Source: Psilocybe cubensis (taxonomy: Eukaryota). From it: a stretch of 64,000 nucleotides of DNA. The notes beneath the pieces are model-generated. The model saw only the letters and a list, made by a program, of their open reading frames with translations. It ran no database searches and had not been told where the DNA came from. Below are positions 12,319 to 64,000 of this stretch, in pieces. Position 1 is the first letter of the stretch. Every line of letters begins with the position of its first letter. The stretch is taken from assembly GCA_017499595.2 (NCBI GenBank), contig CM039003.1:2852001-2916000 (forward strand), written 5' to 3'. The position numbers were made by a program, and so were the translations under genes.

Positions 12319-12668
12319 TGCACGGCGTCAATTATCAGCGAGAGATCCAGAGCTTGACGGTGTAAAACGAAGTATTATATCTGAAATTTCGAAGTGTATC
12401 TCATCAATTTGCAGAAAATGGTCGTGCTTGCTAATGCTGTAGAGATACTTACGGGTGAGGAAAGTGGTGTGATGGCTGAAGTGCTGAATGTTCAATGTTG
12501 CCGTGGCTGGTGTTTTAATTGATTGGCGACGCACAGCTTTTGATGCCATCTGTCCCGCCATTAACGGCGAATTATTGAATGCAGATTGAATCTATGTTGC
12601 TTTCTCTCTCTCCCTCTTCAGAACACCATGATATGATCCCATGATGCTCATTGTTCGGTATCCCTCAT

Positions 12669-18685: not shown

Positions 18686-19812
18686 TCACAGGCCCATAAG
18701 GCCGTGCACGGCCCATTCGTAGACCCCTAAGAATACGGCACCACCAGCGGATATCCAAAGCGTCCGTGGTACTACACCTGCAAACAGCGCTTTTGGTCCC
18801 TCTGTGACATAGATTTTCCTAAACCTGGTTAGTAAAGAGGGAAGTTTTGACTTGGTGGCGTCCTGAGAATGGTTGAGCAATGTAGTTAGTTAAAAGGAAA
18901 AAAAACTGACCCGTGTGTCAAGCATGACTCGGGTTTTGAGAACATCTAAAGGTGTCGTCAGTGCTGCTGCCACTCCACCAGCGATACTTCCGCAAATGGC
19001 TGCTTCATGAGCGTACAGCGGTTTGCGATTGAGCTTTCGCGACAGCTGAAGTTTCAAGAATTCATACAACGGGAATTGCAGCGATGTGAATGGGATCTTT
19101 CGGAAGAATGAGCAGGAAAAAAGACATTGAAAGACAGCATATACGCACTTCTCGCATGACTGTTATGCCAAATCCCCTGTAAAACCCTCTCAATCCATTG
19201 TTCGACAAGACGAGTTTGGCCGCCGAGAAGGATGAAGCGCCCTGCGCACCGTACGTCGACGTCTGCATCCGTGTCTTGATGACTTCTGTTGGTACGCGAA
19301 TTAAGCAGGCAGCCTGAAATCAACGAGCGAATAAACCAAGGAAATCGCGTAAATGGGACGCTTGTAAATGTCTGCTAGAGAAGACCCGTACAACTTCCGC
19401 CACGGACGCTGCTACCATGTGCTTCACGGGTGCGAGTCCCTCAGAAAGAGGAAGCGCATTCTTCATTGCTTCATAAGTCGAAAAAAATGCAGCAGCTGAG
19501 ATTAAAAGAAGGATTGCGCGTCACAAATTGTAATACAGAAATTGCGAAAGAAACTCACCTCCCGGAGCACTGCCCACCCCAACACTTCCAACACCCTTAT
19601 ACACCCCAGAGAACCCACCAGCTGCCCTGAACCCTTGCGACGATTGAAGCCTCGTCTTGATGGTATCTATTGGAAAAAAGAGAAGGTCTACAGAGGTCCC
19701 TGCAATACCACCCGCCTAGAATGTGATTAGTGGTATGTTGTCGTTGCAACAAAAAATGCAAAGTGTATACCAGAAGTGACTGAAGAAACGTCGGGCTAGT
19801 TTCTAAAGTCAT
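18686..19812 (-). CDS. PET8: Mitochondrial carrier, S-adenosylmethionine carrier type (Pet8/Sam5/SLC25A26-like)
   Basis: Three carrier signatures after splicing ([30 protein letters not shown]), plus [14 protein letters not shown] and [23 protein letters not shown]. Confidence 0.88.
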
Positions 19813-19968
19813 TTCGACGAAGTAGTTGACAATGATGCAACAAAAGGACCTACCGTCGCTGTTGAATTGCGGAGCAGAACGGCGGAGTCCGCCGGCATCG
19901 AGCACCGAGAGGCACCGAGTAGCACACTTCGACTTTTAAACTCGCACCCCATTCTATTTCTATCAGAC

Positions 19969-21750
19969 ATGCAGCACAACTTGGACGATCTTGCCAAATG
20001 CAACGACTATCCATCTGATGAGGCCATTTCTGAAGTCAAAGGACTTCTCTCTAAGCCATGGAAGCGTTTGGAAGAGACCAATGCCGAAATCAATCGCCTT
20101 GAAGTTTTGCTAAAAAAATTAAAACAAACGCGAACGGGGATCGAGGGGTCAATGAATCGTTACAGCAGTATACTGGCCCCAATTCGTCGTGTCCCCGAAG
20201 ATATTCTTCAAATGATCTTTATACATTGTCTCCCTACCCATCGCAACCCTACCATGGGAGCTTCGAACCCCCCGATGCTACTCACACGAATCTGTCGCCG
20301 ATGGAGGTCCATTGCATTTTCTTTACCCATATTATGGGCTAGAATTCACATTCCTTTTCGAATAGTAGGTGATATACACCCTCAACATCCAGGATATCTG
20401 ATTGTGCCAGCGCATACAGTTTCAACTGTGCTACAACATAGATGTCAGGCCGTCGCGGATTGGTTGACGCGATCTGGGGATTGTCCATTGTCGATTTCTA
20501 TCACTTGCCTGAAGGATTATCATCATGACTGTGATTTCCAACCCGAAACTTCAATATTACTCCTCAAAATCGTGGCGAAATATGCACCACGTTGGGCGTT
20601 TATGCAGTTGAAGATTCCCCTTGAAACTTATCGCGAGCTCGAAACCATTCTGTCCTCATGTCAGCTTCCTATGCTTGTCCGTCTTAGGGCAGATATATCC
20701 GATGAAGCGAGTGATGTGTACTGGCGACCTTCACTAGGACTACTCGAATCCCGCAACTTGCAATTCGTATCGTTACGCCTTCCGTACTCTTGGGGTGCCA
20801 GACTGCAGGTGCTCGCTCAAAGACTCCAGCTTCATCAAAACATTACCTATCTTTCTATTCCCATGCCCTGTCCAGTTGACGATGTGATCAGACTTCTAAG
20901 GTCTTGCCCTCGCATTAATTATCTCCGTCTTTCACTCGAAAGGTATGAGCTTCAACATAAGAACCTCCAAGTTGTATTGCTGCCATGCCTAAGATACCTG
21001 ATGATTGAAGATGATTTCGCGGTGTCTCAAAACAGAGAAAATATATATAGCTTTCTAATTTGCCCACAGCTTCAGTGGATAGATTGGCGAAATCCCTCCA
21101 TCATTGGGCAATTCTCCTTCGACGACCCTCCTGGCTCATCCATTCTGTCCCTAGTTGAACGTGTTGTAACACTGAATAGGCTTGCTTTCACTAGGCAACA
21201 TCTCTCTCCCTCCCAGGTCCATAGACTATTGGATATGGTGCCTGTCAGTTTCATCACGAAGTTGATTCTGAGGTCGGTGCTCGGTAACTGGGAAGATGTG
21301 GATACATTCGACCTCGGAATCCTAATTGGACACCACAAGTCAGAAACAACAGCCACGGTTACTGATAAGATCCTCCTTCCACGACTAGAACATTTCGAAC
21401 TCTATCAAACACGAGTACCAGACGACACAGTGCTCCAATTTGTTCTCAGTCGCACGGGAACTATCCCCAGTATTTCCATCCTCAAATACGTGAAAATCGT
21501 GTTTTCTCGAATGAAGATTCCTGGACATGTTGATGTGGAGGACCACGTTCGAATGCACTTGGCACAAACCAGCATAAAGAAGATCCATCTCGAACTAAAC
21601 TATTTGCTGCCTCTGTATGGAACTGATTCGGAAATAGTTGACCCACTATCTCCGAACTTTATTGGTGATCAGACGCACAATTTGAACTTCAACACTGGAG
21701 ACAAGACATGGACATTGGAGGAGATGGATGATGAAATTGATATTCCTTGA
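19969..21750 (+). CDS. Intronless agaricomycete F-box-like protein, paralog of 10558-12318
   Basis: LAPIRRVPEDILQMIFIHCLPTHRNPTM...PMLLTRICRRWRSIA, WLTRSG, LLPRLEHFELY. First ATG at 19969 (the ORF track starts at an upstream TTG). Confidence 0.88.
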   Translation: MQHNLDDLAKCNDYPSDEAISEVKGLLSKPWKRLEETNAEINRLEVLLKKLKQTRTGIEGSMNRYSSILAPIRRVPEDILQMIFIHCLPTHRNPTMGASNPPMLLTRICRRWRSIAFSLPILWARIHIPFRIVGDIHPQHPGYLIVPAHTVSTVLQHRCQAVADWLTRSGDCPLSISITCLKDYHHDCDFQPETSILLLKIVAKYAPRWAFMQLKIPLETYRELETILSSCQLPMLVRLRADISDEASDVYWRPSLGLLESRNLQFVSLRLPYSWGARLQVLAQRLQLHQNITYLSIPMPCPVDDVIRLLRSCPRINYLRLSLERYELQHKNLQVVLLPCLRYLMIEDDFAVSQNRENIYSFLICPQLQWIDWRNPSIIGQFSFDDPPGSSILSLVERVVTLNRLAFTRQHLSPSQVHRLLDMVPVSFITKLILRSVLGNWEDVDTFDLGILIGHHKSETTATVTDKILLPRLEHFELYQTRVPDDTVLQFVLSRTGTIPSISILKYVKIVFSRMKIPGHVDVEDHVRMHLAQTSIKKIHLELNYLLPLYGTDSEIVDPLSPNFIGDQTHNLNFNTGDKTWTLEEMDDEIDIP

Positions 21751-41292: not shown

Positions 41293-44056
41293 TCACTTAC
41301 GAATGAATACATAGTAAAATATCAAAAGAACCGCCAGACAGGAAATCGGTAACATGAGCATATTGCAGTTTTCACGCACTGCATATTCCCATTGGCACAT
41401 ACTCCACAGGTCTCCAGTATCTATAACTGCGGATGTTGCTTCTTTCGCATCAATGGTTCGGAGGAGATGATGGGCGCGCTTGGACGCTTTGCTAGCCTCT
41501 TTTGAACGACACAATCTGGCTTGCGTCTCAGCCTGTCCCTTCAAAGAGAGCCCAACCATGAACTTGTTTTCCATGTGCTCAAACATCATTTCAGAGCGTT
41601 GGAAGAGGGCTAGTGCCTGATTCAATGTTCCGCGTACGCGATTCATTTCTGCGAGGTGGAATACGCAAAACCCCATCTGTGCATCGTTTCTCAGCGGCTT
41701 GAATTCCTCGAATGCCTCTTTGAGACCGGTCTCTGCTGCGTCGTAGTCTCCTTGTAGGTACAGGGCAATAGATTTCTGGTATAATGCAATTGCAGCCTCT
41801 CTCCTGGGGCCATGGACCAAATAATAGGCTCTTGCATTTGAAGAGTACCTGATGGACTCTGATTGGTTTCTGTTCCGGTATAATCTTCCAAGCTCTCGGT
41901 CACAATCGGCTCGGCAGGAGTGGTCTTCAGCTGGACAGGAATCCCTAACCGTTTCCAACGCCCGTAAAGCCTCTGAGAAGCTGTTGTCCTGGAAGTGGAC
42001 GATTGCCATTCCACGTTGAGCGGAAGCTCTCTCCCGAAAATTTTCCTCAGATCGGTTATAAGCGCTGGAGTAAAGCCCCAAAGCACGCGTGTGGTCCCCA
42101 CGAAGTCGATAAATCTCTGCTAGGTATATCTCAGCCTGAGATGTCCACCTTGTCTGTTCCAGGCTTCTTCCCATGTTTGCCGCTTCCTCCAAAGCATTTA
42201 TTGCTTCAGGGTAATTGTCCAGTCTGAAATACAGTACCCCGAGCCGCAGCAAGGCAAGAGGATATATATGATTCACCATTTCCACTGAAAAAGGTGATTC
42301 ATTGTCATGGTCAAGCTGTTGGGTAAATTTGTTAATCCCAAGCAACTTATTCCTCAAAATTTGGACACTTTTCTCGGCTATATCTGTGCTCGGCGTGTTC
42401 CATATAAGATAGTTGCAGTAGTCCATAGCAATCCATATGGCGGGTTCAAAATCGTGTTCCAAAGCATCTGAGAGGATAGCTTCTGCATTGATTTGCTCGT
42501 CAGATAGGCGCCGAGCATGAGACAGGAAGTCTTTGGCTCCTGGCTCGGCCCCTGCAGCATGAATCAACTGAAAGTAGAACTCCTTAATTTGTGCTCTATA
42601 TTTGCCACTAAGAGCATGGTTTCGAAGCATATACGACCGTATAGTAGAGTGCATCTGTAATATGAATGGAGAGTTGGTAATCAGAGAGGTCCTGACAAGG
42701 ACTGCTGCTACACGGTCGACATCTTGGATTCGTGAAATATCCCAAAGACTCTCATGCCTTATTCCGGATGGTAACGCTGCAATCATGCGTAGCAGTGTAA
42801 TGGCGTTGGGCCGGGACTTTATCAAAGGACCTTCAAGTGACATTTCAATCCAGCGATCGAGGACGTCCATTGGATCACCATCGTGGACACCAAGTGAAGA
42901 AGTAAAATTATACTGGGCCATCAGCCCCCTGTTCCATATTTCTAATATCCTAGAGGTTGTATAGCTCTCCTGGGCAGATGATGCCATGAGAACAATAGGG
43001 AGTGGTATACAGTCAACGGCACGCAGCAAGTCTTCTAGTCGATCATCGATTGATCTTGAGGGAGCTAGGCTGGTAAATAATTGTTTTGACGCTTCTAGTG
43101 TCAGTGGTTCGATTGCGTCAAATTGGTGCCAAGACACACCGAGATGAGTAACAGGGTCGTAAGCATTGCGAGTGGTAAGGACAATTGTTAACTGCGTAAA
43201 TTGCGACAGAAATTTGAGGATGTCTTCAACAGCTTGCTGCACTCCATGAGGCTCCCACATGGTTTCAAAGTTGTCCAAAACCAAAATTCGAGGGATATGA
43301 TTGCTGGCCTCCAGAAAATATTTGATATCCTTTCGTCTATCATTCGACGCTGTAAGCTCCAGTCCTAGGCTGTCGGAAATGTATTCGAGGAGTTTTGATG
43401 CCTTCATGGTATCCTCTACTTTTGATGCTTCCCGACAACTAACCCAGTGCCGTGCATCTTGGAAATACTTGATGACGAGGGAGTCGTGAATAATCCCAAT
43501 GGCTATTGTAGTCTTTCCCATTCCAGGACCACCTTTAATTGAAATATGCCTTTTGACCTTCAACTTATCCTTAAATTGAGAAAGGATCTTGTCTACGGCA
43601 TCCTTGACGAGTTGATCGCGACCGTATATTTCTACAGCAGGAGGAAGTGATAGGATGTGAGCAGATGACGATGATACGTTATACTCTTTAAGAGTCAAGT
43701 TGAATGATGCGGCTGCACATAGTACCACTGCAGCAATGACACCTGTACAGGAGAAAAAGCAACCTTTGGATCTTCTTTGGTCGTTTGGGGAAGAAGCAGA
43801 AGAGATGGAAGCCTGTGTATCCTCTTTGTCTTCTTCATCCTGAAACCTCGCTCTCTCTAGGGACTCTCCGGTCTCAGTACGAGGAAATACATTTATGTTT
43901 AATGTCCCGCTTAGGACCGGGGCATGTTGGATCTAATTGGGTGGAAAGATCTGTTAGCGAGAATGTTGGTGTAAGATTTGGAAAAAATACCGTTTTGGCA
44001 ACAAAGGTGCCGCCTTGTACAAGTACGTTTTTTGCACCGTTCCACATGCCAGCCAT
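41293..44056 (-). CDS. NLR-like STAND protein: short N-terminal motif, NB-ARC-like NTPase, TPR repeats, C-terminal transmembrane tail
   Basis: Walker A GGPGMGKT, Walker B ILVLDNFE, LTTR, C(I)PL(P)I, and TPR-like helices (LGVLYFRLDNYPEAINALEEA etc.). Two short 5' introns join MAGMWNGAKNVLVQGGTF to the 811-aa ORF. Ends MLMLPISCLAVLLIFYYVFIRK. Confidence 0.85.
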
Positions 44057-44408: not shown

Positions 44409-47400
44409 TCAGGTGTTTGTTGAATAAGAGCTATACCATTCCTGCCCGTGCAAAAATTTAGAGAAATCTAGGCGGATTGGATTATTTGCAAAGATCGCAA
44501 CCGTGCTTTCCGGACGCTGTAATGCAGGCAAATACGTTTGGGGAATGCAGATGATCAATTCACCATGGACTCCGCGTATCCACCCGTCACCGTCCACTTT
44601 CGAAATATCGACAGAAGGCAATTCCTCGTGGCCGACTGTCTCCGCCTCTACCTTCCACACCCGAATTGTACAATCATCCGATCCAGACACAATCTGGTCT
44701 CCATTTTGCGAAAAGGCAAGAGAGTTTACAAAACCAACATGCCCTTTAAATGGAGGCAGAGACTTTACCAATGGGTAGGTGGCCCAATCCCATACAATGA
44801 TAGTGTGGTCTCTGAGGGCGACAGCGATACGGGAAGGACTATGTAGCGATAGTGAAACTGAGGTGACCTGTGTGCCTTGGTCATCAGTAATATTCAATGA
44901 ATCTTCCAGTATATCTCCTGTGTTAGAGTTCCAAATGGTGGCCGTGCCATCAATAAAGCAAGCGATTATCAGTTCTCCATCAGAGATGAAGCCAACATTG
45001 ATAACGACTTTATCCCCACGAGCAACGAAGCGACGTTTCATACTTGCTTTTGTCTCTAGAACATCCCAAACCTGGATTACACCGCGTTGATGACCGATTA
45101 CAAACTGTCGCCCATCCTGAGAAAAGTTCATAGAAACCACAGCGTCAGGATGATCAATGGGTAGGCGTTCAGTTACTGTCCCGGTTTCAGTATCCCACAG
45201 GAAGACGTCCCCATCTTGAGAGCCAGAGACAATTGTCTTTCCATCAGGGAAGAAACATACACAGCAAACGGAATCAGTGTGACCCACACAAGGCGATCCT
45301 TGCATCCGTCCGCTGTCCACCACATTCCAGATACAGAGTGTGCAATCATTCGAGGCCGATACAAGTCGTTCTCCATCCGGGGAAAACGAAAACCAATTTA
45401 TTTGGCCAGTATGTCCATGTAGCGGTCCTGCTACGATGCAATCTGTCTCTGTATTCCACAAGCAGACTGTACCATCTTCTGAACCAGAAGCCGCCAAAGG
45501 GCTATTTTGGGAAGGAGACATTGCAACGGATCTAACTGGTCCAGTGAGTTTATAGGAGGGAACACTGCCTGTCTGTGGTGCGTGTTTGGCAGAATTGGCG
45601 TTCCATACTAGAATTATTTGATCTGCGATTGAAGCAATGCGCTGGCCGTCAGAGGAAAATGCCACTGAGCGAACACTTCCCGGAGGACCTATCAGTGGAA
45701 CGCCGTCTAGAGCCTTTGTACTAGTGTTCCACAAGAAAAGCTTCCCGTCTGTAGAGCCGGAGACAAGGTGCTGCCCGTCAGGTGAGAATTTAACCGAGTT
45801 GACAGAAAATGCGTGGCCAGTTAGTGCTACAGGATTCGCCAGTTCTGATAAATCGTCCCATATATATGCATTCCTATCAAAGCATCCAACGGCAATTTGT
45901 TCGCTGTTCGGCGAGAAAGCTACCGAAGATACTATACTGGGGACACTCCAGGAAACAGTTGGGCCCAGAATTGTACCCTGTGCCGAGTTGAACGTCCATA
46001 GGCAAACATTGAGATCACCTGATCCAGACACAATACGCTTTCCGTTTGGCGAAAAGGCAATAGCACGTATGCCCTTTGTATGTGCAGTGACTGGGTTTCC
46101 AATCGTTGAACCTGTAGCAGCATCCCATACTCGAATGGTACAATCATAAGATGCAGAGACGACATAGCGTCCGTCTGGAGAAAACGCGACACAAGTTACA
46201 GAACCAGTGTGTCCAGTCCAAGGGCCTCCAACCGGGGTGCCTGTTGCCACATTCCATAAGCGAATTGTACGGTCACTAGAGCCAGAAAGTATATGCTGTG
46301 CGTTTGGAGAAAAGGCCACACTGTATACCTGGCCAGTATGTCCCACAAACCGGGTATTTTTGATAGCCCCCGTAGTAGAGTTCCATAGACATATAGGGCC
46401 ATCAAGAAGGCCACAAGCTATCCATTTCCCATCCGGTGAGAACTCGACGCACACAATCAGAGTGTCCACCGATATGGAGAGTTCCATTGTTGGCCAATGG
46501 GATAAGCGCCCTTTTATGAGCGTAACTGATGAAGGAAATTTGATGGAATAGGTGCTGTAAATTCTAGAAGAAGAAGGAGCAAATGGGAGAGCCGATACGT
46601 ATATGTGGGGTGTACTCATTGCAATTATCTTTCCAAAGTACCGAACGAATGTAAGGCCATCTGAAACCATGTCAATCAGCTCTCGAATTCTGTCTGTCAT
46701 TTCACGCTATGCATAGAGATCAGCCACGATTGATTAACAAGAGAACAGGAGCATTACCGAGTCAGAAATGATCAAACCAATTTGAAGCCATTTTGTAGCA
46801 ACGGTGATGGCTTCAACAGCAATTTGCACGTTTTGAGTGACACTAAGGATCTCCAACCAGAAAAGGAACTTGTTGAAAAAGAAAGTTTCAAGTTTCTCAA
46901 GCAGTTCGATGCTGAACGCAGAGCGAGTCAAATGGTCACCCCAGAATCGGCAGGCATAGAGTAGAGCAGGAGAAATAAACCTATTAATGCGTGAATGGAG
47001 GTCGTCCACATCGGTGTTTAGGAGATGCGAGGATTCGAGTCGACAAATATTGAATGTGAGTTCATGTATCATCAATCCAAGACAAGCGTTCGCCAGTTCC
47101 TCATGCGCTGTAGAAATGTCAACAGAGAATGTAAGATTGGGCTCATCAGGAACCAGCACCCCCTTAGGTAAGCAAAAGTTGGCTTACCTCCGAACCTTTT
47201 CAACCCTTCTGCACTCACACTATTCTACATTTTTGAACCACAGATATGTAGGTTATGCTTCTTTGAACACATCTGTGGTTTTTTTTTTCAAAAAAATTTT
47301 GATCTCAAGAAGTTATAAAGATTTTAATTTTTTTCCTTTTTTTTTAGTCTAACACGTCAGAAATGGTGTTTTCTCGAGTTTGGGAGATTTTCGAAAATTT

Positions 47401-50277
47401 GACAATGTTCTTTTGGCCGCTTATATAATGGTACACGTGACCACACGTGACAATAAGTCACGCCTAAGTAATACCTCTCAGACTCATTATGGACTTCCAG
47501 AGACTACAATTTGACCTCTGAGGTGTAATTCTATTATTGTGGGCATAAAGGCTAGTAGTAAGGATTGTATATGCACATTTATGAATTTTTTTTTTTTAAA
47601 CTTTTTGTCTGAAACCATTTTCCGTCAACATAACTTTTGATTTTTTTTTCGAGCTGGATTTTGGCCGCTCTTGGCGCCAAGCCCATTGATTACGTAAGGG
47701 TGCTGGTTTCTGATGAGCCCAATCTTATGTGGATTCGATTCACTTATGAGGAAGTCGCGAAATGATGTATGAAGAGGCACAACAGGTAAGTGATGATTTC
47801 CAGAAGTGACGTTACTCATAAGTGAGCCCATGCATTCGACCACCGCGGGAACCGACTCGTCATCGTAGTCATCGTCGTGAACATTGAACCGTCGCAACTC
47901 AGTCAGGGTATCCACAGAAAGGGATTCAAACGCAGCCAAAAGCTGTCCCATGACTAAGCAAAACCTTGGACGCACGATGGTCCATTTGTCGGGTGTGAAA
48001 TGTGCGGATAGCACTTCGGTGTACAGGCTGTAGAGGTTGGAGGCGAGCCCTTCACCAAATTTTTTGTCGTCTTCGCGACCGCCGAGAAGGCCACGTAGGC
48101 AGTCTTTCTCGGTATAACCTGCTGGACGCTTCTTGAGGTGTCCACAGGCAACTGAAGCCCATTGGAATAGCCCATTAGCTTTATTCACCAAATCGTCGCC
48201 ATGTTTCTCGTATAGGTGGGGTTTCAAGTGGGTTTGAAAGTACAGGCGAATGTCGTCCTCCACTTTGGACGCTAGGTTGGGATCGTCCATCTGGATGATT
48301 TTGAATGGAGGATCAAGAATGGCGCGGAAATAAGACTCGATATTACCCTCTGACCTTGAGGTGATAAGCACACGAAAATTAAGAGGGAGCCTTTTAAGGG
48401 ATCGCGAAAGGAAATGTGCCATCGTCTCCGGATCTCCGCTTTCGTCAAGGCCATCAATAACAATGAGGTCAGGAGTTTTCATGGCCTTCACTGCCAGAAG
48501 GGGCCTCAAAAGTAGAATTTCAAATAGCTGATCGAAGTCATCAGAAGTTCTGAGAAGCGTATTGTTAGCGATTATTTTGCCTAGCTCGAGTTTGAACAAT
48601 GGATAGCGGTCAGCCATGTCGCGAATGATGGTTGTGAAAAGATAATGGTCCGTCTGCTTAGATCTCTGGGCCCGAACGAAAGAGAAGTAAGATCCGGGAT
48701 GCTCATCGAAACAGAAGCGTGACGCGATTTCAAACGCTATGGACGATTTCCCAGTGCCCAGTTTGCCGAATAAGACGAGACAACGTACAGATTGCTGGTT
48801 GCTGATCCAGTCAAGAATGTATTCCAAGAAATCAGCGCGGGTGCCCTCGAGGCACCCTGATCTGTTACCAGCCATACTCCAACCAGATCTGTAGGGAAGA
48901 TCGTTGATCTTCGCGTTAAAATCTGTGGCCCAAATACAATAAATGTCTTGAAAAACAGTGCAATATTTGGACGCACCTAAAGTTGTGGTGTCATTGGACA
49001 AGATACTGAGGCTCTGCTGAATCAGGTGCACAGCGATTTGCATATTGATGATGCCGTTGTCCACAAAGTCCCGCCTCAGGTTCGTAAGAGTGTCGCAGAG
49101 AGTTTGAATTTCATCACTCGCCTCTCCAGTGATGTTCTTAAACAAACGTTTAACTGAAAGGACCTAAGTAAAAGAAGTTGTTATGAAAACATATGGAGAC
49201 ATACCAAATTGTTTATCGCTCGCGTAGCGCTGGATAACGTCATTGCAAATGGAAACATGCTTTAACATGGTCTTGAGAATTAGCGCTTGATTCGAGCCTG
49301 GCTTAATAGCTACGAGAATGTCTTTCGCCTGTGTCAAATCGAATGTATCGCGCATAGCTTTGACCAGCATCACGACGTTTTGGTCTCGCTCGAATTGAGA
49401 AAGAATCATCTAGAATTTATATGAGCACAGCTTCAAGAAAAAGATGCTTAGTGGGCACCTCGGGGAATGCAGAAAGAATACCCCAGGCCAATTCAGTATA
49501 CGGGTGAATCTGTAGATCGTTAAAAAAGGTAACGGGAGGTCATATCAACGCACTTCTGCCACATCTTTCACTGTCTGCATAACCCATTGAACGTTCTCAA
49601 CCACACCCCTCCACTCATCGTGGATATTGATTGCCTTGACGGTTCTATCAGCGTTATCCAGTGCTGATTCGGTCTCTTTTATCATCGAGTCAAGCGGTAA
49701 AACACTTGGTCCATTTAGAGTTACAGGATCGACAGGTTTAGATCGGCTTTCATGAACTTTGATGGTGAGGATAATTTTTAGCTCGTGCCCGTTGATAGTC
49801 ATGACAGTGAATGTGGCCTCTAAATGCCACTGAGATTCGGATGCATCAGAAAAATCATCTATAACTCACCCCTTGCAGTGGATATAGCCTCAACTACCAG
49901 TTTTCCGATCATGATATCGCGAACCCGATGTTTTGCGTGCATAATTAGCGTCAAAGGCGAATGAGAACGTAGTGTGCTGATTGTAGTAGCGCGTTAGTGG
50001 GTATTTTTCTCGAAAAGAGGGGTCATACACATCACTCAGTTTCTCCTCCCACTCCACACAATGTTCAGTACTACGCACTGCCTTGGTCCTCTTCTTGTTC
50101 TTCGCTTTCGTGCTGCCATCGATTGTGACGTAAAACGCCCTGTTTTCGCCGCCCCAGGTTTTGAGAGCTGGAAGCCCGCTTGCTCGGTGAACTTTCCTAT
50201 CGTCATTAAGACCGAATTAGACGTAACAGCTGACCATAAGTACCTGTAATATCGACAACAAGATTGGAGTCTTGCAT
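44409..50277 (-). CDS. NLR-like C2 - helical (Goodbye-like) - NACHT - WD40 protein (HET-E/NWD-like), interrupted by a MITE; possibly pseudogenised
   Basis: Spliced N-terminus VDITVHRASGL..FYVTIDG..KRTK..VEWEE (C2-like). IHPYTELAWGILSA..SQFERD; CLEGTR, GKLGTGKS, IVIDGLDE, ITSR, LHTSFRDFL, YACRFWGDHL, KFLFWLE, PHIYVSALPFAP; about 13 WD40 repeats (GH...VAFSPDG...SGS.D..IRVW). Confidence 0.88.
47134..47725. mobile_element. Non-autonomous TIR element (MITE), 592 bp, TA target duplication (Tc1/mariner-like)
   Basis: Left AGATTGGGCTCATCAGGAACCAGCACCCCCTTAGGTAA and right TTACGTAAGGGTGCTGGTTTCTGATGAGCCCAATCT form a ~36-38-bp imperfect TIR. TA at 47132-33 and 47726-27. Removing the element plus one TA restores the NLR frame (SNPH-TFSVD). 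AT-rich non-coding interior. Confidence 0.93.
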
Positions 50278-50674
50278 GTTGCCTTTCATTGATTCATTGA
50301 CAACCGTAGCCAATTGGGTATGATCGCGAGAGGACAGTTAGACTGTGAACCGGCAATTCTCGGCTGGCAGACAGGAGGTGGTGATGCGTGACGGATGCAT
50401 CCTAATTGGGAATGCCGAGTAAGTTCGGCATGGAGCCGGAGACAAGCCGGAACTACATAGTTTTTTATCGTTTTCTACATGTCTCATACCTGCATATTTA
50501 CGCAGGTAATACGGTAAGGTATATTCTGAGTAGGCAACTCAAGTAGAGCGAGACGTCTTGAATAGTCACCTTTATTCAATCATTTTGAAGATTCTCGTTT
50601 TCTGGGGTTCTCACGCCCCGTCTTACTCGCATTGCGCGGCTGCCGTCACATCGAAACACATCGATAACTTTGCT

Positions 50675-51937
50675 ATGGACCAGATCCTACACGATCTTCT
50701 CAAGACGAATGATCCTCCATCCAATGATATTATTCAGCTGATCCGAGGCATCCTTTCTGAACCGAGGAGGCAGCTGGAGGTGGTAAAGGCTGACATCCAA
50801 CGCCTTGAAGAAATACAGGCTAATTTAGAAGCCACGATTCACCGCTACGACCCCATTCTGAGCCCAGTTCGTCGCATTCCCCCTGATATCCTCTCCACAA
50901 TCTTTATGTACTGCCTACCGATGGATCGAAATCCAGATATGCGTGCGTCAGAGTGTCCTATGCTCCTGACTCGTGTCTGTAGCGCATGGAGGTCTCTCGC
51001 ACTGTCTTTCCCTCGTCTCTGGACCCAGATACACATACCATATCTTCATTTATCAACTATTCCGCCGCGGTTTCTCTGGGAGGATGCACCAATTCAAGAT
51101 GATGTAGACTTTGGTCAAAGTTCCGCCCCAGCATCCCAGCTGATTGAAACTCTTCGGCGTCGATGCGAGGGAGTCCAAGAATGGCTGACTCGATCAGGAG
51201 AGTGTGCATTGAAAATCTCTATATACTATCACACGCAGTTCTCCTGCAACCGTGATACCTATGGATGGTCCAAGGACTCAACCACCAGCATATTTCTATT
51301 AGCAGCTATCATGCCCTTTGCATCACGTTTTAGAGAACTGGAGCTAGACTCCCCGGATAATATCTACTCAATCTTTGAGACCGCGCTATCATCATGCATC
51401 CTCACCAATCTTGAAAAATTGAAGGTGTCCCTCAAAGATCCATATATTAAATATAATAATCTATCACTACCCCAAAATCTCTTCGGAGATGCGCCTAGCT
51501 TACGCTGTGTATCGATGAATAGACTTCCTGACAAAAACATCAATTCCCTAAGGACCAACACTTCATGGAGGAACTTGACCTCGCTTTCCATCTTTTTCGG
51601 CTGTACACAGCATCAAGTTATGATTCTGTTGGAGCGTTGTCCAAACCTACACCGTGCCCACTTTAGAATTGTAGATGACAATGCTTCGTCGTTCGCGGAA
51701 TTTGCCAACGATGTTATACTGCCGAACCTCAAATATCTGTGGATCATTGAAGAACGAATCAGCAATCGACCCGGTGATGATATGGTCTACAATGGGTTGT
51801 ACAAATATATACATGCTCCCCGACTACAGTATCTCCAATGTCGTGGATCTCGCGAATTGGAGCCGTCGGCCGCATCACTCGAGTTGTTCCTGAAAAGATC
51901 AACCCAATTAGCGCAAATCGGCTGGGTACAAATGTAG
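50675..51937 (+). pseudogene. F-box-like gene truncated at its 3' end by an insertion
   Basis: LSPVRRIPPDILSTIFMYCL...ECPMLLTRVCSAW, WLTRSG. Stops just after LELFLKRSTQL, whereas both paralogs continue well over 150 aa further (LLPRLE...LSP...TW). Confidence 0.75.
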
Positions 51938-52129: not shown

Positions 52130-53340
52130 ACGTGTTATTCAGGCTGTCGGCGCAAACCTTGATCCGGGGAAAGGTACATACTCACATGAAGAGTAAATTT
52201 GACGCACCTGTCAAAATTAGGCTACAGGCGCAAATATGATTCAACTGCAAATTTCAGGCTGCGGGCTCGAGTGAAGGCATATGCATCAGAATTTAGCTGC
52301 ACACCGAAATAATGACAGAGAGTGAAAGTCTGGCTGTATGCCTGATTGGGGTCTGGTCTTAAAATTCTGGAGGTAGGCATGATATTATCCGTATGAAAAT
52401 CAGGCAGTACGTGTAAATATCACGCGCATGTCAAATTCAGGCTGTGGGCTGATATTTCACAGAGAGCACCAAAGTAAGGCCACATACCAAAATAATTTAA
52501 CACGGCCGAAATCAGGCTATAGGCATGAATTCAGCATCAGGCAGTACACGTAAATATCACGCACCTGTTAAATTCAGGCTGTGGGCCAATATTTCACAAA
52601 GAGCATCAAAATCAGGCTGTGTACCAAAATTATTCAATACAGCCAAAATCAGGCCGTAGGCGTGAACCCGGCACACTTATAAGCTTCAGGCTGCTGGCAC
52701 AAGTATGATTTAGCTACAAATTTCAGTCTGCAGGCCCAAGTTAATACATGAGCATCAAAATCCGGCTTCACACCTAAATAACGTTACAAAATAAAATCTT
52801 TTCGTATGCACAAATGGGATCTTGTTGTCAAATTGCGGATGTAGGGATGAATCAAGTACATGTCCCAATGACGCAATCACAAAGTCACCGCCCAAATAAG
52901 GTCCCGGAATGATGTCATAAAGTGTTGTACAATAACCGGTCATGTGATGCAATGGCAGGCGCTTATTACTCAGGACAAACAAATATTACTTAGCGGTGGA
53001 AATTCAGGCGTTGTGATGAAATTATGGAACACAAACTTGGCCAGCAGTACAAATATTCATGTAGAAAGCAAAATTTAGGCTAACCACCAAGATTGTAGCT
53101 GCAACCAAAATCTGGGCCAATGCTTAATTATTCCATAGCCGTGAATAATCAGGCGTTAGGCTAGAATTGTTGCATGACACAAAATCCGGGCAACGGCACA
53201 AATATTCATAACAGAAGAAAAATAAGGCTACAAACTCAAATTATTAGCTGGACAGTAAATCTGGGCGCATGCTTAAATAGCGTGCAGTAACAGAACTCAG
53301 GCATCATTCTCAAATTGTGCAACACAAAATCAGGTTTTCG
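52130..53340 (+). repeat. Degenerate ~37-bp-period subterminal repeat array with core AAAT(T)CAGGCTG
   Basis: Cores near 52401, 52438, 52513, 52576, 52613, 52650 and 52687, with more degenerate copies out to about 53330. A higher-order ~130-bp duplication starts at 52400 and at 52537. Confidence 0.8.
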
Positions 53341-55230: not shown

Positions 55231-55343
55231 TTGTAGCATACTACCACAGATTTGTAGCATGCTACCACAGATTTGTAGCATGCTACCACAGATTTGTAGC
55301 ATGCTACCACAGATTTGTAGCATGCTACCACAGATTTGTAGCA
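55231..55343. repeat. 21-bp tandem repeat, about 5.4 copies, unit TTGTAGCATGCTACCACAGAT
   Basis: Units start at 55231, 55252, 55273, 55294, 55315 and (partial) 55336. Units 2-5 contain the perfect 12-bp palindrome GTAGCATGCTAC; unit 1 has one mismatch. Confidence 0.95.
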
Positions 55344-58624: not shown

Positions 58625-58980
58625 TCATGATCGCGGATTATCCTGAGGGTGCATTAGAATAGGTATTCCCCGACTAATGAGGGATACCCGTAGACGGGCG
58701 ATTTCGAGCTGGGTTTCAAACAGAAGATCTTCATTGGATTTATATGCTCGCATAATGTCGTCCATATAACAACGTAGCTCTGCCTGAACTTCTAGACACC
58801 TCTGTTCAGTGAGTTGAAATTGGTCAAGAGCCTTTTTAACGGCCTCTATGCCTTGATTCTAGAGGAAGGTGGATTAAAACATGAAAATAGACCTAAAACG
58901 AAGAACTCTGCCTCTTCGGGTATGCTAGGGAGGCGGCGACTTTGAGGTTGCGAAGCGTTGTTGCTATTGGAATGGTTCAT
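58625..58980 (-). CDS. Small (~105 aa) helical hypothetical protein, one intron
   Basis: MNHSNSNN...EEAEFF joined through a ~41-nt GT-AG intron to an open frame GIEAVKKALDQFQLTEQRCLEVQAELRCYMDDIMRAY...PQDNPRS*. Confidence 0.45.
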
Positions 58981-59147: not shown

Positions 59148-61507
59148 CTACATATTTACAACTTTGACACCACGGGACGGGGGGAAGATTTGAATCAAAG
59201 ATGTTGTCGGAAAAGTTGGGAATGTATCACCGCGTTTCATACGAGTAACGGGATATTTATGTACAACGCAAATATCCTTGTCTATTGATCGTATCCTGAA
59301 TATAATCCCCATTGAATCGCCCTCAAGCGGTGTAACGAAGTCGTCCTTTTTTACAGGATGAATTGGAAACAACACTGATTTCGGTAATGTCAGTGTACGT
59401 CCCAGTAATGCTAGGTGGGCAGTATCGTCGGTAAGGCTGAGAAGTTCCATCGCCACTTGATGGTCGCCCTTGGATTTGTCTACGACTTTTAATCGTAATC
59501 CTTTCAGCTTATCGTATTTCGTATCTAGCCAGTGAGCGACGGTTGAGGGTAGTTCTGCGATTTCCACCGCCGAGTGTACAGGTATTGCTGAATACGGATT
59601 CCATGCAGGAGACAGAAAACTTGCTACTGTGGACGGCATTGGAGTTGCTCCACCAGAAGGCCCGGGGTCTTGAGCGGAATTTATATGTTCTCGGTTGCTT
59701 GAAACAATGTCAGTAAGCACCTGACAGTCAACGAATCAAGTGAAACCACATACTGTATAATTAAATGTGATATTTTAATACGTTCCACCCTCTGGTTACG
59801 AGCTTCCAGCTCAACGTCTGCAAAGCCGTCGGGGGTAGTGCTTTTAACGATGCCATAGTACCCCTTGAATGTATTATTCCCGACAACGATGACACTCAAA
59901 CCTATATAGACGTCGTTGTGGTCTCTTTCTCCAAGCTTTGACGAATGACGCTTTCGCGGGCGAAGAGTAGCATGGGCAGGGGGGACGTAGAATATGACTG
60001 TGTGGATGGGCACAATGACCTGAAAAATGTGTTGAACACTACTGAGACAAAGAGAATGACAGTTCACCTACTTCGCGTTCGTGCTCTGGGGCGATAATAC
60101 AAACAGATCTTCCATCAAAGTCTGACACCCATCCATGGAGATCTTTGTGATCCCCTTCAACGACTTCAACACTATCGCCTATCTGGAAAGCTGCACGTAG
60201 ATCGTGTAGTGCAACTGCTTGTGTTATACCTTGGGAGGGGATGTGCACTTCCACCTCAGCGTCAGAAACACTCTTGACCGTTCCAAAAAGACCTAAGTAT
60301 TCTCCACCAATAATTTTGACTCGATCATATCGTTTCAGTCGAGTCATGGAGATGGCTTTCGAGGCTTGCGCTAAGGTCTCCGTCGTTACAAATGGACACT
60401 CGCGAAATTGCTCCAACTCGGACGATGTTGGGAGGACATTGGAAAGATATTTGAGATCGATGGCGTCGAAATCCGTGATAATAAATCCATCCTGGAATAT
60501 CCTGTCGAGGTGCGATTTCTTGATGTTGTCCGGAGGTCTGGGGATAAGAACAACACTTTTCCGACCCTGGAATGTGAACACAAGGCCGGTAGCATTTGCG
60601 TAGGTCGTCCAAGCCTTACGCTTTCCAGCAACCTTGACCCACGATTGGTCTTCAGGGCGTGAGGGTGGGGGATGAGATAGGATCTCCATACATCTCTCCG
60701 AGGATAGCCTAACTAAATGTGTCGGATTAAGCTCTCTAACGAGGCAGGCTAACGTATGCGCATGTTGCATTGATGGCGCCTCGACGTAGATTCTCCCAGG
60801 AATTGAGGATTGAGCGAAGACAGACCGGGCAAGGATGATGGGAAATGTAGGGTTCGTTGACATCTGCATAATTTTGAAAGCGACGGCCTCTTCGCGTCCA
60901 ACCTATCACTCGTAAGGTGATCAATAAATGCTGACTGAAGACTTATATTATTTTTGCGTACCTTGCAACCTATTTCATACATGATATCAGTCGCGGAAGG
61001 CATATAATTATTATCACCAAGTCCTCCTGGTTGGGGATTGCCATATTTCTGTATAAGTTCTCGTGAACTAGATGGCTCTATATCATTGTCAGGACGAATT
61101 TTCATGCGTGAAGGCAGAAGCATGGGCAACAAATCGCTCCATTCATCAGCGTTATCTGTATTTTGCATGGCATGATATAGCCGAGAGTGTGCAACACGTT
61201 CCTCATCCTCAGAGTATTCATCGTTATCATTCACTGTATGTCAGAACCCATTAGCATCAGTACATATTGAGCAGAATATATGTAAATTATTGGAACATAC
61301 GTAGTTGGCCCCCTTCATAATCAAGCTCTTCCGAACTTTCATCATCATCGGAAACCGCTGCTTCAATGTCTATGAAGGGATTAATGTCCTGATTTTTTGA
61401 GATCATAATTAAATTTCCCTGAAGTTAGTGATTAGATGGAGGGTTGGATTAGTACACACTGTGCGGTTGCCTAGGCTGTCAAGTCGTCTGCGTTTATAAC
61501 TAGACAT
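59148..61507 (-). CDS. Divergent Spt5-like transcription elongation factor paralog (acidic N-terminus, NGN, several KOW domains), about 700 aa, about 6 exons
   Basis: INPFIDIEAAVSDDDE (Spt5 N-terminal motif). PSATDIMYEIGCKVGREEAVAFKIM...SVFAQSSIPGRIYVEA (NGN). KOWs: LKRYDRVKIIGGEYLGLFGTV, FQIGDSVEVVEGDHKDLHGWV, YIGLSVIVVGNNTFKGYYGIVK..ADVELEA. GGATP..SPAWNP, and C-terminal PIHPVKKDDFVTPLEGDSMG. Confidence 0.85.
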
Positions 61508-61611: not shown

Positions 61612-61878
61612 ACGCTATGATGAACGGAAAGAGAAAACATATGGTGAGAAACACGCTATTTCCGGAGCGATTCTTTAGGGTAGGTTTCCCGTCCTGAAGT
61701 CACGAGTTGGTTAAAAAAACGCCCCCTTACATCAGCCGCATCACGGTGATGCGGCTGATGTAAGGGGGCGTTTTTTTAACCAACTCGTGACTTCAGGACG
61801 GGAAACCTACCCTAAAGAATCGCTCCGGAAATAGCGTGTTTCCAACTTGATTGTTTTTCTTTCCGTTCGTCATAGCGT
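61612..61878. repeat. Long palindrome: perfect 97-bp arms (61648-61744 / 61746-61842) around a 1-nt centre, with imperfect ~35-bp outer arms
   Basis: GAAACACGCTATTTCC...GCCGCATCAC-G-GTGATGCGGC...GGAAATAGCGTGTTTC; outer ACGCTATGAYGAACGGAAAG inverted pair. Confidence 0.97.
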
Positions 61879-62167: not shown

Positions 62168-64000
62168 ATGTTGCCAGAGTCGCACCCACTCCGCGTAGGT
62201 CTTAATTGGATTGCCATTTATGGTACTAATATCAAGTTTCTGTAGAGGATGGTGGATTTCCTCCGACGATATGAGGACTTCACCTTTTTGAATTACGATG
62301 TTTCATCATCGAGCATGCGAGCGGCCATCAAGTATAGGCAAAGCTTGGCTGCCCTTCAGAACAGCATCGTAGAGACACCCTGCGTAACCTCGGCTACATG
62401 GGAGCAGGCGGGTAGCTTATTTGCAGCATACCGTCTACTCAATCTCGTAGCGTTGTGGCCAGCAGCCTTTGGACCATCGTTGCCGGTGACCGTGCCCCTG
62501 AATGAAATACAGGCCAGCACAGGAACTAAGGAAATATTTTCACGGTTCAAGGTATGCGATCATGAAGTCACTCAATGTTAATTCTTAATTTTCAAACAAT
62601 TATTGTAGCTTGTAGATGACTTGAAGGACTGGCCGGCAATGCTCTGCTCTGCCAGGAAGCGCATCCTCAGAGCCGACTCTAAGTCGCACAGAAACATCAA
62701 CACCCCTTCTATCAGTGACACGCCGTCATCCGCTTTCACCCAGGGCGGGCCCTCGGAATCAACGCTATTACTCTGTCTGGCGCGTAACCACTTCAAGGGT
62801 GTTGTGGGGAAAATAATCGGGAATGTGTACTGCGCCTCGCTACACTACCAAATCTTGTCAGGAATGCGCGGTATGAAGGACGATGAACACGTTCTACCAG
62901 ACATTCCAACGGACACGGCTACTCTTGCAAATCTCTAGTAAGTTTTCTTTCCTCTATTCATTGATACAATCTGCTCAACATACCCTAGTGCAAGCGGCCA
63001 TCCTGATGCTGCGTTGTTCCTCTCAGAGGTCACGCCATCTCATTTAAAAATTCCTCTGCATGTCGCCCTTTTCATATCCCCCATCCTTCTTTTTGTGAAT
63101 AAATCTTGGTATTCTAAGAAATGTGACCGGGAGCAGCTGCTTAAAGTAGGTGTATCCACATCCTCCCAGTTTAACTTGGATTAACGCACTCCTTTAGGCC
63201 TCAAAAGCGCTCGGTAATTGTCGCCCCCGTGTTCTGCGTGAAGTGGAGATGGAAATTTGGAAAATCATTGCAGCGCAAAATTGCGACATCCAGTCAGCCT
63301 TATATAAACTTGTTATCTCAGACTGCTGGATGGAATGCGAGCGGGTAATTGCACAAGATCCCGCGTTTCACTTTTTCATATGTGTGTTCTACGTACTGTA
63401 ACAAAATAACAATTTAAACTAATAATTGGCCAGCGTCAACGAGCAGCGCCGAGGTTACAGCAAATTCTAACCTAGCAAGGCGCAGCACTGAACCACACGG
63501 TAAGTTATAAGCAAAGTCTGCGTCAATTACATGATTTAAATCCGTTTAAAACAGCTCAACTTCAGACCGTTTCCCATCATGGTGAAAAAACCACCTGTGA
63601 AGGGTCCGACGCAGACGCGGAGGGTGACGATGATCACGAAGTGGACACGACGGAAATGGTCAGCATGGGTCAACGGGAGAACGGGGACAATACGGTCCCT
63701 ACCTCAAATATACAGCCTCCGGAAGACACGTCTTCAGTGGCTGGCAAGGATGTCAGCATGGGTCAACAGGAGAACGGGGACAATATGGTCCCTACCTCAG
63801 ATATACAGCCTCCGGAAGACACATCTTCGGTGGCTGGCAAGGATGTGCCCACGGACGAGCAACCTGGTTTGCCGCGGAGTGATGATATTGGATCTGGTCT
63901 ACTTCAGACTGAGAATACTGGGCCCTCATCTGCAGGGGATTGTGAGATGAACGTCGATCCGGAGCAAGCTGATGTCGACCATCAAATGGAGGATGGTCCA
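62168..64000 (+). CDS. Large multi-exon hypothetical protein, element-borne, 3' end outside the window
   Basis: Open exons separated by ~50-60-nt GT-AG introns (MVDFLRRYEDF..., LVDDLKDWPAMLC..., LKIPLHVALFISPILL..., acidic D/E region). Start uncertain. Confidence 0.6.
63659..63846 (+). repeat. 93-bp tandem duplication within an acidic coding region
   Basis: GTCAGCATGGGTCAAC...GCTGGCAAGGAT at 63659 and 63752; 31-aa unit VSMGQ(R/Q)ENGDN(T/M)VPTS(N/D)IQPPEDTSSVAGKD. Confidence 0.92.

Follow-up and report, generated by a model that had tools for sequence, protein, structure and literature searches.

We describe here a predicted gene for a compact, divergent paralog of the transcription elongation factor Spt5 in the gilled mushroom Psilocybe cubensis. 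It lies on the minus strand, at 59148–61507, of a 64,000-nucleotide stretch of contig CM039003.1 (positions 2,852,001–2,916,000 of the forward strand; assembly GCA_017499595.2), hereafter the window, to which all coordinates refer. Judged by its sequence, the product is a specialized paralog and not the housekeeping Spt5. With moderate confidence we read the locus as an intact, intron-bearing 684-residue Spt5 paralog from a fast-evolving, multi-copy family, which would act as an alternative, Spt4-binding elongation factor and would be carried in a recently amplified, dispersed repeat.

Gene Structure

The gene runs from an ATG at 61507 to a stop codon at 59150–59148, exactly the span given in the initial annotation, which had also called it spliced; six exons supply 684 codons, with no internal stop, and the five introns (52–71 nt) are all of the GT..AG type, their splice sites having been positioned with database copies and relatives as guides. 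Exon 1 (61507–61460, minus strand, as are all six) contributes the start codon and a basic KRRR stretch, MSSYKRRRLDSLGNRT, and the same N-terminus is present in the P. cubensis database copies P0152 and P0001. Exon 2 (61388–61301) carries the acidic Spt5 N-terminal motif DINPFIDIEAAVSDDDESSEE..., and exon 3 (61233–60962) an acidic disordered linker and the first NGN strand (residues 129–135 in the structural model described below). Exon 4 (60902–60072) encodes the remainder of the NGN domain, including Glu177, followed by KOW1 with an insertion, KOW2, and KOW3, with predicted local distance difference test (pLDDT) values of 80–95 in the model. Exon 5 (60019–59754) encodes a KOW5-like unit, and exon 6 (59697–59148), which ends with the stop codon, a disordered linker with GGATP and SPAWNP motifs, a helix, and two barrels in a KOW6-KOW7-like tandem.

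Exon 5 is skipped in the public gene model of the sister copy P0152 (603 residues). We count it as coding because it is homologous to sequence in 32 fetched relatives (blastp, e.g. P0083, with 52% identity, and P0007) and matches Pfam KOW5_SPT5 (PF23290, 27.7 bits; cut-off 27). The exon 6 region is likewise conserved in the paralogs P0007, P0011, P0020, P0021, P0006, and P0060. An origin of the gene as a retrocopy was considered and rejected, as five introns are kept.

Homology to Spt5 and Predicted Fold

The order of parts in the predicted protein, which appears to be the product of an intact gene, is an acidic N-terminus, NGN, KOW1–3, a KOW5-like unit, a single SPAWNP unit resembling those of the C-terminal repeat region (CTR) of Spt5, and a KOW6-7-like tandem. 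Hidden Markov model profiles for NGN and KOW domains bear this out; with Pfam run on the exons of the window gene singly, NGN (PF03439, 23.8 bits on exon 4 alone; cut-off 22.4), KOW (E = 9.4e-8), KOW2_Spt5 (E = 1.2e-13), and, as above, KOW5_SPT5 are all matched. The copy P0001, which holds the whole NGN domain (residues 130–198), scores 31.5 bits for the same family. The acidic motif FIDIEAAVSDDDESSEE matches Pfam Spt5_N at E = 0.006, under the cut-off, and a profile of the family, built from 26 paralogs (alignment A1), aligns it to the FLDIEAEVD region at the N-terminus of Schizosaccharomyces pombe Spt5.

Searches against known structures agree with the domain assignments. A phmmer search of the PDB with exon 4 had only Spt5 chains among its top matches (E = 2e-10). 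The family profile matches S. pombe Spt5 (8qsz_Y) at E = 8e-76, and the Saccharomyces cerevisiae and human proteins at 1e-75 to 5e-73; profile positions 15–442 align with 8qsz_Y residues 262–699, colinearly from the acidic FLDxEA motif through KOW3 and including the KOW1 insertion, and a second aligned stretch covers KOW5 and the TPAWN repeats of the CTR. An AlphaFold model of P0152, made on the family alignment, has a mean pLDDT of 71.7 and is confident at residues 125–418 and 472–597, with disorder elsewhere (pLDDT below 50 up to about residue 124). Residues 472–597 form two small β-barrels with pLDDT of about 90, in a C-terminal part that has no Pfam match. Foldseek comparison of this model with the PDB retrieved Spt5 chains of RNA polymerase II (Pol II) elongation complexes at 1.6e-21, together with KOW2-KOW3 (4ytl; template modeling (TM) score 0.78, root-mean-square deviation (rmsd) 2.3 Å), KOW6-KOW7 of a human DSIF crystal structure (5ohq; TM score 0.53, rmsd 4.5 Å over 98 columns), and the yeast Spt4-Spt5NGN crystal structure (2exu; rmsd 2.2 Å over 87 columns). 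Because phmmer (2e-10), the family profile (8e-76), and Foldseek (1.6e-21) all lead to Spt5, a chance resemblance is excluded.

Glu177 of the window protein sits in the alignment column of S. cerevisiae Glu338 (manual count, alignment of chain 7nky_Z), a column that is Glu in 21 of 24 aligned paralogs. In yeast Spt5 this glutamate reportedly contacts Spt4, as Guo et al. are said to have found in 2008. From the sequence and the model, binding of Spt4 and a seat on Pol II are predicted for the Spt5-like protein. The yeast allele spt5-194 is E338K (PMC4978902).

Parts Lost Relative to the Housekeeping Protein

The Spt5-like protein shares its order of parts and the Glu338-equivalent residue with the housekeeping Spt5 proteins of S. 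pombe, S. cerevisiae, and human (8qsz, 7nky, 5oik), which, in contrast, are of about 1000–1100 residues, with a CTR array and KOWx-KOW4, and differ from a 684-residue, multi-copy, divergent protein with one CTR unit. No Pfam match to KOWx or KOW1_SPT5 was found in it, and KOW4_SPT5 reaches 20.7 bits, under the cut-off of 27, as against 57–95 bits in canonical-like proteins; in the family profile the gap from KOW3 to KOW5 is only about 35 positions. In DSIF-Pol II structures, the clamp that holds RNA at the exit channel is formed to one half by KOWx-KOW4, and the housekeeping protein has a phospho-regulated landing pad in its repeated CTR. There is no match to the CTR family PF12815 in the Spt5-like protein, and a single SPAWNP unit at residue 531, plus GGATP, compares with five matches to the same pattern in the canonical-like P0112. 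A SPAWD/N pattern occurs in 15 of 32 long paralogs, once in 14 of them and twice in one.

The initial annotation, made from the DNA letters and their open reading frames (ORFs), had described exactly this set of parts (acidic motif, NGN, at least four KOW units, a GGATP/PAWNP remnant, and a C-terminal KOW-like unit) and was right in every item. Its further statements, that the protein is compact and far diverged from the housekeeping Spt5 and nearly lacks a CTR tract, also hold, the former on the length of 684 residues, the loss of KOWx-KOW4, and the deep branch of the tree described below, and the latter on the count of one SPAWNP against the five of P0112.

On the reading that we favor, a protein retaining NGN with the Glu338-equivalent residue, KOW1–3, KOW5, one CTR nonapeptide, and a KOW6-7-like tail would bind the host Spt4 through its NGN domain and replace Spt5 in some of the Pol II complexes. 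A single CTR unit would offer no multi-repeat phospho-platform for recruiting other factors, and without KOWx-KOW4 a part of the RNA clamp would be missing. Because both the CTR platform and KOWx-KOW4 are lost, these complexes would form a distinct class of elongation complex, with changed pausing, 3′-end, or processing behavior. They may be of use to the repeat that carries the gene or, alternatively, to host control over repeats.

A Multi-copy Family in Agaricales

An exhaustive HMMER search with exon 4 returned 382 clusters at E ≤ 1e-3, 91 at E ≤ 1e-10, and 10 at E ≤ 1e-30. The closest clusters are proteins of about 700 residues, or ORFs of about 300 residues that match the large exon, and canonical Spt5 appears only from about 1e-10. 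Twenty proteins were looked up, comprising 16 named Agaricales proteins, two from metagenomes, and two that are canonical-like; as all 16 named members belong to Agaricales, the family seems confined to gilled mushrooms. The named members span nine Agaricales species, five of which have 2–4 distinct clusters at 50% identity, and include proteins from P. cubensis, Agrocybe chaxingu (4), Cyclocybe aegerita (3), Panaeolus cyanescens (2), P. papilionaceus, Arthromyces matolae (2), Gymnopilus dilepis, and Tricholomella constricta (2). They are labeled “SPT5,” “KOW domain-containing,” or “hypothetical” in the databases. Word-indexed protein searches, with exon 4 as the query for longer proteins and P0152 for those near its own length, gave no matches, because the family is too divergent to share 5-mers and because the 329-residue cluster representative lay just outside the length band.

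A maximum-likelihood tree, built quickly from 40 rows, comprised the window protein, eight canonical-like proteins, and 31 paralogs from the database with a length of 550 residues or more. In it the eight canonical-like rows are split from the other 32 by a branch with a Shimodaira-Hasegawa-like approximate likelihood ratio test (SH-aLRT) value of 100. The tree omits P0100 and proteins shorter than 550 residues, and it represents P0006 and P0021 by their Spt5-like portions only (the first 720 and 730 residues, respectively). The window protein groups with the 31 paralogs, apart from the canonical-like proteins. No sequence in the tree set exceeds 33% identity to the window protein, and the end branches have a median length of 0.73 changes per site; very divergent paralogs still share one architecture, the C-terminal tandem included. 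These sequences describe a fast-evolving family with several members per species.

Three family members are parts of larger gene models from A. chaxingu and C. aegerita. The Agrocybe relative P0006 (2041 residues) includes a Tet_JBP-like domain (29.3 bits, under the cut-off of 34.9), and P0021 and P0034 include an RTC4-like domain (about 22 bits, just under the cut-off). Such fused domains may record recurrent neighbors of the family in other species. A further fetched protein, P0100, includes WD40; by blastp, the extra domains of P0006, P0021, P0034, and P0100 have nothing in common with the window neighbors.

Copies within P. cubensis

The 90%-identity cluster of the Spt5-like protein holds three other P. 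cubensis sequences, P0001, P0151, and P0152. P0001 and P0151 (JR316_0004106 and JR316_0004105) are on a 4.19 Mb contig, and P0152 (KAH9480968) is on a 3.62 Mb contig, the same contig as P0159, a neighbor of the window gene. The copy on the 4.19 Mb contig is certainly at a different locus from the window. P0152 most likely marks a third locus, because it is about 170 accession numbers from P0159 whereas the window gene is 4 kb from it; this assignment is based on accession numbering and on one differing residue. The initial annotation had taken the gene for a multi-copy paralog, and near-identical versions on two megabase contigs agree with that at the level of protein.

The copies were compared as proteins only, so that silent changes are invisible. 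P0152 has one true difference from the window model in 603 aligned residues (E177K), P0001 has four in 329 residues, and the last 182 residues of P0151 are identical. Each of the five amino acid differences is a transition (C>T or G>A) at a CpG in the window codon; among the 4481 missense changes that could occur, 137 (3.1%) are of this type. Transitions of this kind are what results when methylated CpG in repeats is deaminated, and differences at CpG only would fit a recently spread, methylated repeat. As the window copy retains the CpG at all five differing sites, together with the family-consensus Glu, it looks like the intact and least altered copy.

A number of observations weigh against our preferred reading. 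P0152 could be a strain variant, which would leave two loci and not three. The E177K substitution in P0152, which arose by CpG transition, repeats the substitution of spt5-194, a loss-of-function allele in yeast, and the annotation divides the 4.19 Mb copy between two gene models, P0001 and P0151, a split that may mean disruption; some copies may therefore be decaying. The window copy has no CpG depletion (observed/expected 0.99), and its G+C content at third codon positions (GC3) of 0.435 is like that of the neighboring NOD-like receptor (NLR)-like and F-box genes, so that its composition gives no sign of a foreign origin.

The damage to P0152 at the Spt4-binding Glu and the split of the 4.19 Mb copy would also be expected if all copies, that of the window included, were non-functional relics in neutral decay, and it is in keeping with this that every visible difference is an amino acid change, as it must be in a comparison of proteins. 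We regard this explanation as highly improbable for the window copy, which is an open frame of 684 codons in six exons with five canonical introns, retains the conserved Glu and the invariant residues of the family, and has the undepleted CpG content given above.

Neighboring Genes and the Question of Mobility

The initial annotation placed the Spt5-like gene at the head of a same-strand run of four genes within an insertion, as cargo of a mobile element. The run itself exists downstream of the gene, whereas an insertion around it and a single repeated unit are not borne out. Next in the run is a possible small ORF (58625–58858, minus strand), followed by a DUF6532 gene (about 58353–55700, minus strand) that encodes a Lys-rich basic N-terminus, a Pro/Gln/His-rich tract, an acidic tract, and the DUF6532 region itself (E = 7.2e-5; 23.2 bits against a cut-off of 24). 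The Pro/Gln/His-rich tract is encoded by 33- and 39-bp coding repeats. A 21-bp tandem repeat (55231–55343; 5.4 copies, 98% matches) occupies the spacer between this gene and P0159 (55068–53420, minus strand), a protein of 527 residues with a coiled-coil N-terminal half that is 100% identical to the database product JR316_0007398 (KAH9480798). P0159 has no Pfam family, an atlas look-up gave no usable relative, its 90%-identity cluster has one member, and no other homolog was found at E ≤ 0.001 among 1614 candidates of 182–581 residues, a band from which copies annotated at other lengths would escape. P0159 appears to be an orphan gene. Since no second copy of it was found in this band, the four-gene run would not be one repeated unit.

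Upstream, the same-strand run ends at the Spt5-like gene because a gene on the opposite strand follows at about 62250–62940, with which the Spt5-like gene shares its promoter region. This common region contains a near-perfect palindrome of 267 bp (61612–61878), 105 bp upstream of the ATG, with 133-nt arms that are 93% complementary and separated by 1 nt; its single-stranded fold is calculated at −157 kcal/mol (z = −33). The core looks like a GC-rich hairpin flanked by A7/T7, and there is no second copy in the window. The palindrome may be a foldback insertion or one of the miniature inverted-repeat transposable element (MITE) type.

Several observations could be accounted for if the Spt5-like gene headed a four-gene DNA transposon, for example of the KDZ, Plavaka, or EnSpm type, and served to keep the genes of the element transcribed through silenced chromatin. 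The dispersed copies are near-identical and differ by CpG transitions only, and eight of the 16 named relatives are on contigs shorter than 25 kb. The relative P0006 is part of one 2041-residue model with the sub-cut-off Tet_JBP-like domain, and TET/JBP genes are described by Kojima 2025 as carried by Kyakuja, Zisupton, and Plavaka transposons in Agaricomycetes (PMC12730594). DUF6532, detected just under the cut-off in the neighboring gene, is listed with KDZ, Plavaka, and CxC2 as an extra domain in the same genomes in a Ganoderma paper (PMC8955403). Past the last gene of the run there is, in addition, a one-sided cluster of the motif GCCTGAWTTT that resembles a subterminal array, with 14 of the 22 matches in the window (11.3 expected). 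These 14 copies, all on the minus strand, lie within 1.1 kb at 52213–53335, between the 3′ ends of an F-box-like gene and P0159, and the array includes a 137-bp tandem (52399–52666); a local satellite would explain this cluster as well as a transposon's subterminal repeats would.

Other results argue against a transposon of this kind. No Pfam domain of a transposase, integrase, or reverse transcriptase was found in 42 ORF translations selected from the 79 ORFs of at least 65 residues at 47.6–64 kb, nor in 26 of the 30 ORFs of at least 130 residues that overlap 1–44 kb. Neither the gene nor the run has terminal inverted repeats on its flanks (58–63 kb holds only short pairs at chance level), and no inverted counterpart of the GCCTGAWTTT array exists elsewhere in the window; any element could extend past 64000, beyond the window, and families that lack terminal inverted repeats, such as Kyakuja, are recognizable only by aligning copies. 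P0159 is without other homologs and alone in its 90%-identity cluster, and 12 neighboring ORFs gave no blastp match to any of 158 fetched proteins, fused models included. The words Spt5, KOW, and NusG are absent from the main text of Kojima 2025 (PMC12730594); DUF6532 and RTC4 are absent from it as words as well. The claim that the gene is cargo of a four-gene mobile element is accordingly only partly supported, the ORFs scanned yielding no transposase, the window no terminal repeats, and the protein search no second copy of P0159, and we consider such an element distinctly unlikely.

The absence of mobilization machinery in the ORFs scanned would suit a non-mobile host gene family that arose by ordinary duplication and is kept for genome surveillance in the manner of plant SPT5L/KTF1. 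The gene also sits among fast-evolving NACHT-WD40, NB-ARC-TPR, and F-box-like genes and has the same GC3, and purifying selection is suggested by the Spt4-binding Glu and the KOW glycines, which are conserved throughout the family. Ordinary host paralogs, however, seldom occur as near-identical copies on separate megabase contigs, and with paralogs at most 33% identical between species a simple vertical orthology is not evident. The family profile is also much closer to Spt5 (8e-76) than to KTF1 (8hyj_W, 1.1e-35), and the protein has no Argonaute-hook repeats; with one GW, no WG, and six Trp in all in 684 residues, the idea of a KTF1-like Argonaute hook was rejected. A host family of this kind seems to us improbable, if somewhat less so than the four-gene transposon.

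We return to the reading in which the gene itself would be carried by a recently amplified, dispersed repeat, the repeated unit being smaller than, or other than, the four-gene run. From the copies in P. cubensis the Spt5-like gene appears to belong to a dispersed repeat, and the four-gene cargo unit remains only partly supported. A bolder proposal, which we offer tentatively and consider doubtful, is that Agaricales harbor mobile units with a private Pol II elongation factor as their cargo or defining gene. Here a cut-down Spt5 would join the host Spt4 and take over the polymerase on the element, and in some lineages it would be accompanied by a TET/JBP demethylase, so that transcription could proceed despite CpG methylation.

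The remainder of the window holds further features of interest. Two adjacent NLR-like genes lie on the minus strand at 41293–43932 and 44409–49163, with NB-ARC and TPR, and with NACHT/NPHP3_N and a long WD40 array, respectively; in the NACHT gene the repetition of the WD40 units extends to their DNA sequence. Three paralogous genes of about 470–650 codons, at 10558–12327 (minus strand), 19807–21750 (plus strand), and 50534–51937 (plus strand), have in common an N-terminal coiled-coil and F-box-like region as seen by eye, with a Pfam F-box-like match only in the gene at 50534–51937 (1.2e-4). An open frame on the plus strand at 63476–64000, which continues past the window end, encodes an acidic protein with a 93-bp coding tandem repeat (two copies, 94%) and no Pfam family. 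Rfam and tRNA scans of the whole window gave no matches.

Comparison with Known Systems

To our knowledge, no transcription factor other than Spt5/NusG is common to all domains of life, and eukaryotes rarely have more than one copy. Specialized NusG/Spt5 paralogs are nevertheless a known kind, represented by RfaH, LoaP, KTF1, and Spt5m. The initial annotation knew of no functional description of such a system in fungi, and our full-text literature search, with supplements outside its scope, found no account of a fungal Spt5 paralog family. The extra Spt5 of plants and that of ciliates serve small-RNA-guided genome defense. Plant SPT5L/KTF1 (RDM3), which works with Pol V in RNA-directed DNA methylation, is a lineage-specific Spt5 paralog beside a housekeeping gene, as the mushroom protein appears to be, and its chain 8hyj_W is matched by the family profile, which is nearer to Spt5 as given above; fungi, as far as we know, are without Pol V. 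Paramecium Spt5m, which is meiosis-specific, is likewise a second, specialized SPT5 gene in a eukaryote. It keeps the full KOW set and is a single developmental gene, in contrast to the multi-copy, dispersed mushroom family, and as of 2017 plants and ciliates were the only groups with reports of multiple SPT5 genes, both according to the Spt5m study (PMC5416832). If our reading is correct, the fast-evolving, multi-copy mushroom family would be the third independent case, after plants and ciliates, and the first in which the extra Spt5 itself looks like a repeat. The action of a minimal Spt5 on Pol II could also be studied in it, as in a natural experiment.

The transposon-borne TET/JBP dioxygenases of Kyakuja, Zisupton, and Plavaka offer a parallel of another sort, in which an element carries a host-type chromatin or transcription factor against silencing (PMC12730594). 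The window differs from them in that the ORFs scanned hold no TET/JBP and no transposase, the Tet_JBP-like fusion being seen in P0006 alone.

The bacterial NusG paralogs RfaH and LoaP follow the same logic as that proposed here, with an NGN-KOW factor replacing the housekeeping one on a subset of transcription units. Paralogs of the RfaH type often act on horizontally acquired transcription units. They have two domains and are recruited by the ops DNA element, whereas the mushroom Spt5-like family has no known recruitment signal. With this family it can be asked directly whether the selfish DNA of eukaryotes is able to supply an elongation factor of its own, in the way that RfaH serves bacterial xenogenes, and should mobile units with a private elongation factor prove real, they would be the first eukaryotic counterpart of the xenogene-specific NusG paralogs of the RfaH type.

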